A stretch of 63,986 bases of DNA, the filler included, from Streblomastix strix (Eukaryota), in assembly GCA_008636045.1 (NCBI GenBank). It is 3 parts of 3 records of this genome, joined end to end, with 100 filler letters (N's around TTAATTAATTAA, not from the genome) between each part and the next. Parts side by side here need not be neighbours in the genome. Positions count along the whole stretch, not along the records: positions 21,606 to 43,077 come from SNRW01000370.1; 2 more parts are not named here. The stretch is one strand, 5' to 3'. Within the stretch, counting starts at the first letter, position 1. Every line of letters starts with the position of its first letter. Below are positions 21,606 through 37,499 of this stretch, piece after piece. Below the pieces are notes generated by a model. It was not told where the DNA came from. It was given only the letters and a program-made list of their open reading frames with translations, and ran no database searches. The position numbers were made by a program, and so were the translations under genes.

Positions 21606-21703
21606 TAATGCGTGTTGTAAGTCCATTTGAATATTTTTAAATAAAGAAAATGATAAAGGGCATAGAAAGAAACTCAATTCGCATGTCAAAAACCAAAAAA
21701 TAA

Positions 21704-22450
21704 ATGTCTGAGATAAAGCATAAAGAACTGACGGACGAAGATAAAATAAGATTGCAATTGATCGATGTTGCAATTAGTCGCATAAAAACAATGCCGCAGA
21801 TAGGTCTTAAACGAAGTGAAACCGAAGGTTTGAGCTCTGCTAAGCGTTTCACGCCCGCCAACGGAGTTGGTGAAACCATCGATGATACGTCAGAACCTAA
21901 AGAAAATCCAACTTAAATTGGGAATGAAATTATTCAAGTAACGACTGAATAATTAATCTTTACTGGGTAAAAAATTACTAAGTATAAGAGCAAATATAAT
22001 AAAGATAAATTTAAATAAATTGAAAGAATAATTGCATAAGTTGAATTAGATGAAGTAATTAAAAATACATATCTTTCTCATCCAAATCTCGCTGTAATGA
22101 AATTTATTATTGATTGCTTATGGGCTACAGTTACTACAAGAAAAAGAGATGATGATTTTATACTTTCGTCTGATAATTTTATTAAACTTTGGTCACTAAT
22201 TACTTAAGAGAATGAAGATGATATTGAAATTGTATTAGAAGAACCATTGATGTATTCACATTCTTGTATAGATAAATCATATAAAAAGAAAGATCTAATC
22301 AGAGTAATGGATGTATTAATTAAAAATGTTAGCATATCAGTTATTGATAATGTTCTCTTTAATTCTATTGAGAAACTGTATCGAATTAACAAGGATTTTG
22401 TTCGTTTGTCTGATGCTCCTATATCAGAGATTTCCAAAGATGATTTTTGA
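21704..22450 (+). CDS. Hypothetical viral protein, 248 aa
   Basis: Track ORFs 21704 and 22247 are in the same frame and join when TAA=Gln. Ends in TGA. Confidence 0.75.
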
Positions 22451-22508
22451 AATAATTTTTTTAACTGTCGTTTTTATTTAGCATTTAATTTTTTTACTGA
22501 CAACAAAA

Positions 22509-22943
22509 ATGCTTGCACAATCTGAAATAAGAGTCAAAGGTAAATTGCTTGTTCAGTCTAAAAATATACCAAAGAAAATACACGTTGAACCTATATATTA
22601 ATGTGGTGATGATTTCTATTAACAATCAATCAATAAATATAATAATAAACGATACTTTAAGTTACTAAAACGATACGGTAATAATCCAAGTTATTCATAA
22701 ACAGTTTATATTATGATTGAGAAGAGACATAATGGACATATTGATGACACAATTAAATCATATACTCGTTAGATGAAGAAACTTAGAGATAATACATCTA
22801 ACTTAAGTGAAGATGATGATGTCAAATATAGGAAACTAAAAGAAGCAGTTGAATAAATGTAAGCTCAAACAAAATATAATTAATACAATTAATTTGGAAT
22901 TAAATGTCTAGTTAATCGTATAGATTATTATGTTAATGAATGA
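22509..22943 (+). CDS. Hypothetical viral protein, 144 aa
   Basis: MLAQSEIRVKGKLLV...RIDYYVNE*, open from ATG to TGA. Confidence 0.7.
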
Positions 22944-22967
22944 TCGTTGATTATTTTTGGAATAAAA

Positions 22968-23723
22968 ATGTAATAACAATTAAGCGATTTAGATTTGAAT
23001 GATGAAGACGTATAGAATAATTAGTAAGAATATGTAAGTAAAATAATATAATAAAAGGAGTAATAAAAATAAATTAAGGAACTTAATACATTACTATAAC
23101 TGATTGATAATGAGATAATAAAGTATTTTAACTATTTGAGTTAGTTCTTTAGAAATTCTATTGATTATATTAATTTACATTCTGAATAGATTATTCGTGG
23201 AGTAAAGACATTTTTATCACCTATAATAGCTGGCAAAATTATTAAATAAGGTGGAACAAGCAACTAAATTCTATTAGCTAATGGAGATACTATTGAAAAA
23301 GACTAATTAAATTATGAACCTATTGAAAATGTACGTTATTCATCAATTGCTTATGGAATGTATGAGTAACGAATATGGGGTGCATTAACAACATAAAATA
23401 GTAGAGTATATATTTCATTATAAATAACTCACTCTGATCCTAACACAGTATGGTAATCAGGACATACTTTATTCTCAATCGTTGATTATGCTATAAAACC
23501 AAAGTTCAGTGGAACACCAATTAACATACCATTAAATGCATTTATGTTTGCGTAAAAAGTTCTTGGTTATCCAATATGTTGGAATGGTGCTATTCCTATA
23601 GATTGTTTTATTAATCCTAATGGCAATGTTATAATTAATACAATGTGTTAGTTAAGTTTACCTGATGATTTTTGTGTATAGGTTTGTGATTCAAATGCTA
23701 TTCATAATTAATCGGCTAGTTGA
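22968..23723 (+). CDS. Short fibre/spike-like protein, 251 aa
   Basis: N-terminal coiled coil, then QIIRGVKTF...KIIKQGGTSNQILLANGD (motif shared with the long fibres), then a beta-rich C-terminal head. Confidence 0.65.
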
Positions 23724-33680: not shown

Positions 33681-33769
33681 AAAAAAATATTTTTTATTAA
33701 ATGCAATTCATAAAAAATAAATTGAAAATACAGCTTGATTTGCCAATGCAGGACAAACTAATGAGCATC

Positions 33770-34740
33770 AAGAGAATATAACCCAGTATAATACAGACAT
33801 CTGAAGATTCAGAAATGAGCAGTGGAGCGGTCTTGTACCTTGCAACAATTGAGGAGGATCCAATCTTTAGGACGGAACAATGTGATTACTGATAGATACA
33901 TAAATCGTCCAACTAACTGGAAATTACATCAATATTAATGTTATTAAGGAACCAGAAGGAATATATTCAAACTAAAAGTTGTATTCTGATATGAACAGTC
34001 AACACTCTAACTGAATTCTGCATGTGGAAGTAGAAAAGCTAAACAGAAATAGCTACTGATAGCAAAAAGAGTTAGGAAACATGTTGGAAAGAACAGCATT
34101 AAGTTGGAATTGAAATATATCTAGGGAAGCAAGAACATTAGCAATCTTAGGACTTCCTGTTTGTCTGAACATTTTCGCTTCGAGAACCAACAAATGTCTA
34201 AGTAGCTACTGCAACTTGTTACCTGACAATCATGCGTTCGCTGTAAACTAATTACTGAAAAAGTTCAACAAGGTTAGAAGCAACAAAGCAGAAGAAATTT
34301 TAGTGATTCCAAGTTGGAAGGGATAGGTATGAAAACGATGGGTACAAGAGATGAAGATAGCGGAAGTTGATCTGGTAGATGCGAAAGATTGCTTGGAGAT
34401 GGTCAAATTAATGAAGGATCTAAAACAGCAACTACCTCCAAAATGGATGAGATCCAGAAAACATGGTAAAAGCGAAGAGTAGGGCTCCATTTATTCAGTG
34501 ATTGTATGATTGAGAAGAAACTGGAAGTAAGAGATATATTAATTGGAAGAGAAGACGTAATCTGAGCTAATGCTTTATCATGGTGTGGAAAGAAAGGATG
34601 AAAGTCTGTATCATATGATTTAACGAAACATGAAACGTGGCACAATCCCCTATCGTGCAAGTCATTGTTAAAAGATTTGCTGCGATTATGAGGAAAGATA
34701 TCAACATTAAACAGCAAGTAATGAAAATCAAAACAATTCT
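33770..34740 (+). mobile_element. DIRS-like retrotransposon relic (RNase H and methyltransferase-like region)
   Basis: SSNQLEITSIL...ILI*TVN...KYIQGSKN (RNase H pattern), then NIFASRTNKCLSSYC...LVIPSWKGQV*. More purine/GC-rich than the flanks. Confidence 0.65.
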
Positions 34741-35899
34741 GCTGACCAGTAACTGTTATTGATAATAGTTAAATACAAAGGAAAACAAAAAAAGATACAA
34801 GAAGAAAACATTTTTACAGTTTATTATTAAAAAAAGATGCATGAAGAAATTGGATGTAACAGAGTATTGAGGAAATTGTTGGCTGAATTTGGTGTTAATA
34901 CCGAATTTTAAAGTAGAAACTACAGATATTTCTTTCTTTCCTTTATATTTATCTCATTTAATTCTTGATCTGTCCCTCCAGTTGTGCAAAATTAATTCGA
35001 CGTTGTTCTTCCAATTCGTTCATTAACGTGCTCCGTTCATATTAACTAATCACCAAATCATTGAATTAATGTAAGACATTTTCTACCACAATGTCCGATT
35101 AATAAACTCTATAAGTCTTTTTAGAAGTTAAAATATGTATTAATTTTATATGAAGAAAGTGTAATGAGTTGTTGGATGAGATTTCGTTACTCAAGTATTG
35201 ATTTATTTGTCTTATTTCATATAAAAATGGAAATTATATTTATTATGCATCATAACTCAAAAAATTCATTGAATTAAAATTAAATTACTTGACGCACTAA
35301 ATTATAAATTTGCATGTTCATTTCACATAGAGCATCCCATTACTTCGAATTAACAGTTATGAGAGATATTTTTCTAGAATTCTAACAAACATTTTTAAGA
35401 ATAATAAGAAAATTGAATTCTCTCTCAATGACAATGTCATGCAAGTAAATAATGATATGAAATTGTTCATATATTCCAAAAATAAAAACGAAACATAACT
35501 GAAAATGTATCACTAAACCGTAACTAATCTCATAAATAAATTAAATTATTCCATCACACAATTTGGAAAAACTAATATGATTGAAAATAAAAATTATTTT
35601 CGTAAAATAAAAACATACATACGCATTCTAATAAATCGAAAAACATAAATTTAAAGTAAAATAATATAAATAATCAGTATAGTATAGAAAGCTAACATAT
35701 AAACAATATTTTCTTGAAAATTAATATTTATAAAATAAATAACAATGATATGATGCAACTGCATAAACTGGGAAAATTGAAGAAATATTAAATGATTCTG
35801 ATTTATATATGTGAAGAACAGTAATATTTTTTGTTTAAAATGTACAAACAAATATATAATACAACGAGTATTCTAAAAATAAAATTAGAATTTTTGAGG

Positions 35900-37308
35900 A
35901 CTCGAATTAATAGTGGAATTTAGCTTTATTTTCTCCGTAAGGAGTTTTGATTATAGCTAGATTTAGCAAATATATCAATCTGAACTTGTGTGTATGTCAA
36001 ATTTTAACAATTTTAATTTATGAATGAACTGATGCTGAGAAACGAATCTGCCAAACTTATTAAAAAAAATAGTTTGAATGAAAAAAGAAATTACTGAATT
36101 ATTAACAATTATTTCATCAATTTCTTTCCTAATTTTATACGCTAATGCTATAAAGAAACATATTTTATATTCACATTCTACATAATGAATTGAATATTAT
36201 TTGACATGCTTATCAAGATATGGTATTCTTGCTCATGTACCTATTAATTTATAAGTTGCAAACATAACATTAAATAAGGCAACAATCAAATTTTTGGTAT
36301 CATCATATGTACTTTCCATTCATTCTTTTAACTTTCTGAATATATCCATTTTAAATGTTTCTAACGATTTCTTATCACTTATTGTTGATTATTTATATTT
36401 GAAAGCATTATCTAATGAAGGAATTCTACAAGAATATTTATAATTATCACCATCAAGTTTTCGTTATATTAGAACTCCAAAATCAATTTGAACTTTAAAG
36501 GGAAGTCTTTTGTATGAATCGTAAACATTATTTGCAAATTAAGATAGTTGCTCATACTGAGTTAGTTTATTAAAGTAATGAAGTTTATAAGTAATTTCAT
36601 CATAAACAGCTTCAGCAATTGCTTCATTATTTTTAAATTTACTTACTCTTTTAATTTCTTAAATATTTTCTTCTTCACTATCAACATCACATAATTGTAA
36701 TGCAATTTATGATAATTTATTGTTTCTTTTTAAATCTCAATTGTTGAAAATGGATAAGAGAAATCATCTTCATTTTGCATCAATTATTGATTGAGATTAC
36801 GTTTAATTTTATTGATTCTATCTTTATATATCCTTTCAACATCAAACCGTTTAACTTTGTATTAATTTATTTTATCATAAGCATCTAATCTATGTTAAAT
36901 TTTATTAATTCTATTTTTATATATCCTATCAACATTAATCCGTTTAGTGTTGTATTAATCTATATTATCAACTATTCCAAATCTCTATTTTGCTTTATTA
37001 ATTCTATCATTATATATTCTATTAACATCAAACTGTTTAATGAAAAGATAGTTGGTTTTATCAGACAACATATCTATGAAATCTGATTAAATGACATCAT
37101 TTTCTTGCATAAGCTGTTAGTTTGGTAAGCCCATGTGTAGTTAGAGGAACTAATGAACATCATCAAAGTTTGTCCTATCACAAGTTTAATCTAACTCTCG
37201 TAATTTAGCAACTAATTCAGCTAATAATTCACCATATTTTTCTGTATCGTATTCTGGCCTAATAATTCTCATTAGTGTAAATATTTCTGGTTTAGATAGT
37301 TTAGGCAT
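35900..37308 (-). pseudogene. polB: N-terminal (terminal-protein-like) region of a pPolB, with three 31-aa repeats
   Basis: LPFKVQIDFGVLIQ...VALFNVMFATYKL...CFFIALA parallels YKLAIDFGFIYE...IAIYSMCATAYLL...CVLEAIA in the polB at 43178-45658. Repeats have a 93-nt period (37029, 36936, 36843). Confidence 0.65.
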
Positions 37309-37499
37309 TTATTAGAAAATAAAATTATTAATAATCAATTTAGATAATAATATTAATATATATGTACAAATTTAATATATAAAACTTGATGCTGATCTAA
37401 AAAAAGAAAACTTTTTATCAATACATATAACTTTTTAAGAGTTTTGTTAGTAATTATTACCATGAATGTCTAACTTATATAGTAGATATTTATTTAAAA

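Follow-up and report, generated by a model that had tools for sequence, protein, structure and literature searches.

The closest described relatives of the locus reported here are the polinton-type elements of Streblomastix strix itself. Bellas et al. 2023 (PMC10120064) showed that S. strix elements use genetic code table 6 and counted 820 major capsid proteins (MCPs) in one cluster, MMPC_40 of the Metamonada (MMN) group, with the elements making up ~10.8% of the genome; the clustering was loose (25% identity over 30% of the length). The polinton gene set, including endonuclease inserts in pPolB, is listed in 10.1101/2024.03.18.585575. Cupiennin-like and other membrane-active genes occur in adintoviruses, and a "VI" label is used in MELD viruses (PMC8502044). 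Phage-like fibers have been reported across Polinton-like viruses (PLVs), including in T. vaginalis (PMC12220804). Metamonad elements are left ungrouped in 10.64898/2026.06.19.733378, and the egovirus preprint (10.1101/2024.03.23.586382), in the portions used here, covers parabasalids and ciliates and leaves oxymonads unmentioned. Here, we analyzed 63,986 nucleotides of the S. strix assembly GCA_008636045.1 (the window), which comprise three contigs of 20-34% GC separated by N gaps at 21506-21605 and 43078-43177, and we describe the viral element at 21.6-37.3 kb on the middle contig, SNRW01000370.1.

We conclude, with a probability of about 0.72, that an endogenous DNA virus of high copy number, whose capsid is predicted to be of the double jelly-roll type, left a decayed copy at this locus, and that this virus is likely an oxymonad polintovirus and a likely representative of a second capsid lineage. 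The locus is a known kind of endogenous virus in a decayed state, and as a single copy, it is ordinary debris.

Genetic code and gene packing

With table 1, the longest stop-free run between 21606 and 33705 is 91 amino acids (aa); with table 6, gene spans fill 11742 of the 12100 nt. Eleven table-6 frames reach at least 250 aa; 100 shuffles gave 4.0 on average and never more than 9. The openness of such frames is weak evidence in AT-rich DNA. Long table-6 frames also arise by chance, and therefore, homology was used as the proof. As a non-circular test of the reading of TAA and TAG as Gln, these codons were masked in the MCP, and the residues facing them in eight distant homologues were counted. 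Gln stood opposite at 48 of 225 positions (background 4.9%), the commonest residue there. Furthermore, TAA or TAG accounted for 162 of the 201 Gln codons in the nine frames counted.

The span cover, the masked-codon test, and homology together bear out the proposal of an earlier note on this DNA that the TAA/TAG reassignment resolves ~16 kb into tightly packed genes; its coordinates and gene order were also correct (MCP, 25877 to 23896). Its claim that a non-standard code had hidden the genes fared less well. Table 6 in S. strix is already in Bellas et al. 2023, and the public records carry table-6 hypothetical proteins, with 3 of the 120 listed MCP homologues automatically named "Major capsid protein".

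The capsid protein

The N-terminal piece of the MCP, used as the query, recovered 278 homologues among 1713 candidates. The 120 of them that were listed are all named Streblomastix strix and are 52-92% identical, which points to this oxymonad, likely of the termite gut, or a close relative as the host. Among 1.84 billion proteins, the MCP profile matched 207; the best 150 were examined, and the weakest 57 fell outside. When 10 distant relatives were looked up, 9, with lengths of 462-696 aa and contigs of at most 21.8 kb, were hypothetical or unnamed proteins and 1 was from S. strix; the metagenomic relatives of the MCP show 20-30% identity. The MCP profile had no match among the PDB sequences.

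Does the protein fold as a capsid protein? The double jelly-roll had been set beforehand as the point on which a viral interpretation would stand or fall, and it was examined on an intact paralogue, P0027, which is 66-68% identical to the window MCP. With distant homologues added to the alignment, the model reached a pLDDT of 77 and a pTM of 0.85. Foldseek matched it at E 1.3e-11 (PDB) and 1e-12 (BFVD), and the best VIA hit had a Z of 15.4 and a root-mean-square deviation of 3.6 over 336 residues. The top 16 VIA rows were all viral capsid or scaffold jelly-roll proteins, and the model resembles PBCV-1, mavirus, Sputnik, faustovirus, and other double jelly-roll proteins. The P0027 model thus carries a predicted double jelly-roll, as expected of a Preplasmiviricota MCP, and upholds the earlier assignment of the locus to an endogenous Preplasmiviricota element written in the table-6 code of its host.

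In an MCP tree, the window and 22 paralogues lie on one side of a branch with an SH-aLRT of 100; this was a quick, midpoint-rooted tree with long branches, in which the published reference MCPs were not included. Scans of viral or metagenome contigs found none of the loci of the distant MCPs, the peptide, or the polymerase.

Packaging and replication genes

The candidate packaging ATPase (Table 1) has Walker B as DY, whereas DD stands in all 6 paralogue pieces that cover the motif (7 examined). Of 6 paralogue models, 1 had a piece that matched Pfam Pox_A32, at E 0.0015, which falls short of the curated cut-off. Walker A, a Walker B that is intact in the paralogues, and a downstream QRP motif point, if weakly, to a putative A32/FtsK-type ATPase of the kind found in Preplasmiviricota. 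A decayed inverted paralogue of this gene and its two neighboring open reading frames (ORFs), 36% identical in protein, lies at 40281-40890; the part at 40.4-40.9 kb corresponds to the minus-strand ORFs 28931-29272 and 29283-29651. At the other end of the element, pieces 45% identical to ORF1 occur in two fused paralogue gene models that also hold fiber and ATPase pieces.

The polymerase matched PHROG profiles for DNA polymerase (E 1e-5) and HNH (E 1e-3). Its motif C reads ETD, and another polymerase copy of the window has DTD. The separate N-terminal part aligns over 182 aa, at 22% identity (E 7e-6, shuffle p 0.003), with the corresponding region of the polymerase copy at 44459-45538 and lies ~2 kb farther from the exonuclease domain than in the 43-45.5 kb copy. 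The intervening ~2 kb occupies a place where a paralogous polymerase has ~270 nt, and its GC content is 35-39% vs. 20-29%. Its GC-richer part, at 33.8-34.6 kb on the plus strand, may be a piece of a DIRS retrotransposon, a label without Pfam support; the plus-strand frames of the insert gave no Pfam match. An 89-nt match to 35875-35962 was observed at 41316-41403.

Contigs of four sequencing runs (X1-X4) were placed on 21606-41600 to obtain depth. At the insert, the summed X1 contig depth falls from ~27000 to 26-312, and one X1 contig equals 33584-36041 without a differing letter, X1 being possibly a non-independent source. Where the contig depth rises again, the polymerase N-terminal ORF contains three 93-nt repeats (31 aa) at 36798-37063.

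Table 1. Features of the viral element and of the second module, in window coordinates.
Feature	Position	Strand	Support or search result
rve-type integrase, C-terminal part; member of the element only if the scaffold join is right	20600..21505	+	
Scaffold gap (N run with filler); left end of the element beyond view	21506..21605	.	
ORF1, 280 aa, open, possibly cut by the gap	21608..22450	+	
ORF2, ~144 aa, open	22509..22943	+	no Pfam or PHROG match
Short fiber-like protein, 251 aa, open; likely coiled coil, one shaft repeat, C-terminal domain of ~130 aa	22968..23723	+	hhalign
Double jelly-roll MCP (predicted), ~660 codons; TGA at 24857-24855, frameshift near 24793	23896..25877	-	homologues and paralogue model
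68-aa cationic amphipathic peptide, intact, head-to-head with MCP	25944..26150	+	77 homologues
Long fiber-like protein, ~750 codons; TGA at 26676, 26892, 26997, 28050, frameshift near 28170-28200	26178..28429	+	
Small ORF	28432-28983	+	
Small ORF	28931-29272	-	
Small ORF	29283-29651	-	
A32-like packaging ATPase (putative), frame open, Walker A intact, Walker B altered	29713..30696	+	
Family-B DNA polymerase, exonuclease and palm part, HNH-like insert	30739..33705	-	PHROG
Foreign DNA of ~2 kb inside the polymerase gene	33706..35950	.	
Polymerase N-terminal part (possible terminal-protein region), frameshifted, TGA stops	35950..37308	-	
Second module: fiber-like gene, 123-nt (41-aa) repeats	55030-57062	+	PHROG 5004 (unknown function), E 1e-7
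Second module: C-terminal fragment of a different MCP, published S. strix type	59000..59605	+	

State of the copy

Together, the genes for the MCP, long fiber, and polymerase are interrupted by no fewer than 8 internal TGA codons and by 3 frameshifts. The MCP has one TGA, the long fiber has four, and each has a single frameshift. In the polymerase, there are three TGA (32825, 32411, 32183), a frameshift near 32040, after motif A, the ~2 kb insertion, and more breaks in its N-terminal part; the DY of the ATPase Walker B adds to these. The copy is therefore not the near-intact one that had been proposed. The paralogue residues facing the four TGA codons of the long fiber are W in 36 of 39, R in 36 of 39, S or Q in 36 of the 38 shown, and R in 39 of 39. 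Because the four positions face W, R, S/Q, and R, these TGA codons are nonsense changes. Read-through of TGA as recoding was considered and rejected, as the four codons face different residues. The frames of ORF1, ORF2, the short fiber, and the peptide are open.

In X1, the summed depth is 4600-62700 at 21.6-33.6 kb, drops to 26-312 at 33.6-36.3 kb, rises to 9871 at 36.3-36.9 kb, and is 23-116 at 37.6-41.6 kb; these figures are not a copy number and come from a run that may be the source of the window. The pattern is weaker in X2 and X3. The homologues number 278 for the MCP, 77 for the peptide, and 50 for the long fiber.

Fiber-like proteins

The long fiber-like protein has an N-terminal coiled coil and 31-aa repeats (93-nt repeat), and its body is likely beta-rich. 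All 50 homologues are from S. strix, and 2 of them are automatically named "Tail fiber protein". None of 40 members matched PHROG or Pfam at E 0.001, and phage genomes gave nothing at E 0.01, the best hit at a loose cut-off being a putative tail fiber at E 0.6. The short fiber-like protein aligned with the long-fiber profile in hhalign (P 82%, E 1e-5) over 36 columns, which correspond to one shared short repeat, and had no significant PDB or phage match. For homology to phage receptor-binding proteins, then, PHROG, Pfam, PDB, and phage genomes gave no significant match, and the label "phage-type", applied to these fibers before, describes a resemblance. Their architecture and position suggest a fiber role.

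The 68-aa peptide

Between the MCP and the long fiber lies a short gene for a 68-aa peptide with 77 homologues among 78 candidates (74 from S. strix, 3 from JGI). In an alignment of 58 members, which left out the 19 of 77 matches of odd length or partial extent, M1 and N9 are invariant and the MG start (G2) is kept in 54. Of the 74 S. strix peptides, 17 have a gene tag next to that of a listed MCP (120 tags; 0.3 such neighbors expected), and 4 have one next to a fiber tag. Single contigs of X3 and X4 cross the MCP-peptide junction and thereby support the arrangement in the window. At other loci, fused gene models hold the MCP and peptide both head-to-head and co-oriented. Judged by its conservation in sequence, the peptide is a real gene.

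Could this peptide carry the virion across a membrane, as the "adenovirus-like entry peptide" of the earlier note would? The hydrophobic moment over residues 2-23 is 0.49 (p 0.0008, 20000 shuffles). The opening motif may resemble the lytic helix of adenovirus protein VI (pVI). As a single sequence, as a divergent member, and as a profile, the peptide found no match to adenovirus protein VI in PDB or Pfam; the best Pfam hints, not significant, were antimicrobial peptide families (E 0.17-0.34). Set beside the pVI layout in the part of PMC8156859 used as the reference, the peptide shares the cationic amphipathic helix and, as far as its sequence indicates, differs in homology, propeptide, C-terminal cofactor, and the length of ~250 aa. 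By analogy, its function may be like that of pVI. The amphipathic and conserved character of the peptide, usually beside the MCP, thus stands, while no search links it to protein VI.

A possible, though less favored, alternative is that the peptide serves inside the particle, as a cement or DNA-binding core protein, or else as a membrane effector directed at the host, rather than in entry. Its charge is cationic along the whole length (net +5), as would suit such a protein, and the absence of a protein VI match with any form of query, of a pVI-type propeptide, and of a C-terminal cofactor, in 68 aa rather than 250, points the same way. On the other hand, the strong amphipathic moment begins at residue 2, G2 is kept in nearly all members, the gene is tightly linked to capsid and fiber genes, and the antimicrobial hints, non-significant as they are, lean toward a membrane-active peptide. 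We therefore continue with the entry peptide as the somewhat better supported role.

A second capsid lineage?

The window itself provides a sample of the published S. strix capsid type. In the second module, 25 of 28 residues of the MCP fragment agree by eye with an S. strix MCP in the part of Table S3 of PMC10120064 that was used (from Table S4, its S. strix row was also used, and from Table S5, 58 rows). This 171-aa, MMPC_40-type fragment and the MCP of the element had no match by hidden Markov model (HMM), and hhalign gave a P of 0.1; on this one fragment, the element MCP would fall outside MMPC_40 by sequence similarity. Because of this dissimilarity, the element MCP likely represents a second S. 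strix capsid lineage, uncounted in the published set. The divergent lineage that had been proposed thus survives in the narrower sense of a capsid family that differs from the one published for S. strix. For the MCP family or the 68-aa peptide, we found no paper in a literature search in which subscription papers fell mostly outside.

The element might instead be one of the 820 published MMPC_40 insertions, in which case the lineage would not be new. We consider this unlikely. The host name, code, and element class are all as in PMC10120064, the published clusters were drawn loosely (25% identity over 30% of the length), and the MCP family shows a likeness of motifs by eye to Histomonas and Trichomonas MCPs in Table S3. 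Against this stand the lack of HMM or hhalign similarity to the fragment, the failure of DUF4106 to match any of 57 family members (a search run with no positive control), and the absence from the 120 listed tags of all 18 published S. strix references taken from that source (13 compared, 5 by eye).

A slightly less probable alternative still is a PLV or virophage-like element that has no integrase of its own and needs a giant virus of the gut protist as helper, in which case the integrase across the gap would be that of a neighboring element. No integrase was found inside the contig (21606-43077), remnants of several polymerase, integrase, and ATPase genes are scattered over the window, and the Mavirus and Sputnik MCPs are among the fold matches. 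However, virophages do not stand out among those matches, the integrase, which ends at the gap, shares its strand with ORF1, and the egovirus preprint, as far as the parts used go, concerns parabasalids and ciliates. With the integrase-like ORF at 12920-14047 and the frameshifted C-terminal stretch that continues it, the integrase piece shares 39-40% identity (E 4e-14, 2e-14); the ORF matches Pfam rve weakly (E 0.048). The link of the integrase to the element is unsure because the left contig is a 10.5-kb palindrome.

A near-intact provirus whose breaks are errors of amplified single-cell assembly is very improbable: that perfect palindrome is a typical amplification or assembly artefact and contigs of X3 and X4 read differently where the MCP is frameshifted, but these contigs are other copies with ~15 further differences, an X1 contig (possibly from the source, hence non-independent) reproduces 33584-36041 exactly, and the lesions comprise at least 8 stops, 3 frameshifts, 2 altered catalytic motifs, and an insertion.

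Several points weigh against the reading of the locus as a decayed polintovirus of a second capsid lineage. For the capsid, the fold rests on a paralogue model and not on the broken protein of the window, the TM-scores of the fold matches are only ~0.4, and a first P0027 model, built from 75 close paralogues only, had a pLDDT of 53 with an unfolded C-half and matched no capsid in structure searches. For the gene set, Pfam and PHROG found neither a penton (single jelly-roll minor capsid protein) among the window ORFs nor an Ulp1/adenain protease in the incomplete element, and the "complete attachment and entry kit" claimed earlier is thus not borne out. For the ends, the window held no matching inverted pair of terminal repeats and no target-site duplication was found, the left end of the element being in or beyond the gap; the integrase is separated from the element by that gap and lies beside an artefact contig. 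In X4, the depth contrast is absent. For the lineage, the published type is represented by a single 171-aa fragment. The 18 references are best matches of parabasalid contigs and are biased to the published type. The S. strix rows of Table S5, which bear on the claim, were not among the rows compared, and distant MCPs in the part of Table S3 used share motifs with the window family by eye.

Proposed life cycle of intact relatives

Host ribosomes read TAA and TAG as Gln, and the virus genes use both codons. In intact relatives of this probable polintovirus, the polymerase would copy a linear genome, with protein priming probable from its family; the MCP would build the shell, and the A32-like ATPase would package the DNA. 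The two fibers would bind the host surface, as their architecture suggests, and the 68-aa peptide would, somewhat more probably than not, ride in the particle and breach the vacuole membrane. An rve integrase, if the gene across the gap belongs to the element, would insert the genome. The window copy can make neither the MCP, the long fiber, nor the polymerase and is a pseudogenized insertion.

Other elements in the window

The second module, at 55-62 kb, had been thought to have a similar gene set. A fiber-like repeat gene and a C-terminal MCP fragment are indeed present; however, it matched none of four profiles (two MCP, fiber, peptide), nor the ATPase or polymerase. Two ORFs of 223 and 328 aa (57109-58792, plus strand) precede the MCP fragment and are penton candidates without a Pfam or PHROG match.

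The left contig is an inverted duplication with arms at 1-10509 and 10997-21505 (10508 of 10509 positions identical) and a 487-nt spacer. It is likely an amplification or assembly artefact, and therefore, the genes there are counted twice. Another decayed viral module lies at 10990-18400, mirrored at 3100-10500, with the C-terminal half of a polymerase (41-43% to the focal one), the rve-like integrase at 12920-14047, an HNH endonuclease (Pfam HNH_3, E 3e-6), and a VapE/D5-like ATPase piece (E 7e-4). A mariner-type DDE transposase fragment (DDE_3 E 6e-9, Transposase_1 E 8e-9, GC 38%) follows at 19128-19799 on the minus strand.

Broken family-B polymerase copies occur on the minus strand at 43180-45538 (45% identical to the focal polymerase) and 46490-49000 (30-37%), and a host-like armadillo/HEAT repeat gene lies at 41774-43075, also on the minus strand (Pfam HEAT, E 1e-5). 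Between modules, a family of 100-170-nt repeats, 73-94% alike, is found at 2790-2888, 5811-5909, and 54640-55000 and their mirrors; it could be terminal or promoter sequence of the elements. Inverted-repeat pairs at 20498-20857 (52 nt, 79%, 256 nt apart) and 45947-46367 (121 nt, 93%, 179 nt apart) are possibly inserts resembling miniature inverted-repeat transposable elements.

Implications and comparison with known systems

Metamonad polintons remain unplaced in 10.64898/2026.06.19.733378, going by the parts of it used, because their capsid genes are so divergent; the MCP relatives of 20-30% identity form a bridge set for placing this group. If a second capsid family with hundreds of copies is real, the viral share of the genome exceeds the published 10.8%. 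Since the peptide is short, conserved, and easily synthesized, the membrane crossing of non-enveloped protist viruses becomes directly testable. A bolder version of our reading, which we think doubtful, joins a second, uncounted oxymonad polintovirus lineage, with deep relatives on metagenomic contigs of 10-22 kb, to a particle-borne 68-aa lytic peptide that is a minimal true homologue of the pVI helix. If so, adenovirus-style endosome escape would predate animal hosts.

The comparisons that follow extend to the parts of each source used here. Like Polintoviricetes (PMC8502044; 10.1101/2024.03.18.585575), the element has a family-B polymerase with a homing-endonuclease insert, a putative packaging ATPase, an MCP, and, if the join at the gap is right, a probable rve integrase, but no Ulp1/adenain protease or minor capsid protein was identified in it. 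With adintoviruses and MELD viruses (PMC8502044), it would share small membrane-active accessory genes (there cupiennin-like and PLA2X, and "VI" as a label in the MELD figure legend).

With PLVs bearing phage-like fibers (PMC12220804), the likeness lies in long, repeat-containing fiber genes beside the capsid gene; unlike theirs, the 40 long-fiber members here gave no match to an S74 chaperone, collagen, laminin, or phage-tail-repeat domain. The design of fibers plus a membrane peptide is thus not new. Like adenovirus protein VI (PMC8156859), the peptide has an N-terminal cationic amphipathic helix and adjoins capsid genes, whereas protein VI has ~250 aa rather than 68, and the peptide, with its helix at the very N-terminus, has no propeptide, protease-cofactor tail, or search match.

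Finally, the published MMPC_40 elements (PMC10120064) share with this one the host name of the homologues, table 6, high copy number, and a divergent double jelly-roll MCP found only by structure. On the other hand, their MCP has ~560 aa vs. ~630-660 here, the 171-aa fragment shows no similarity to the element MCP, and the 68-aa peptide and fiber pair go unmentioned in the parts of that paper used.

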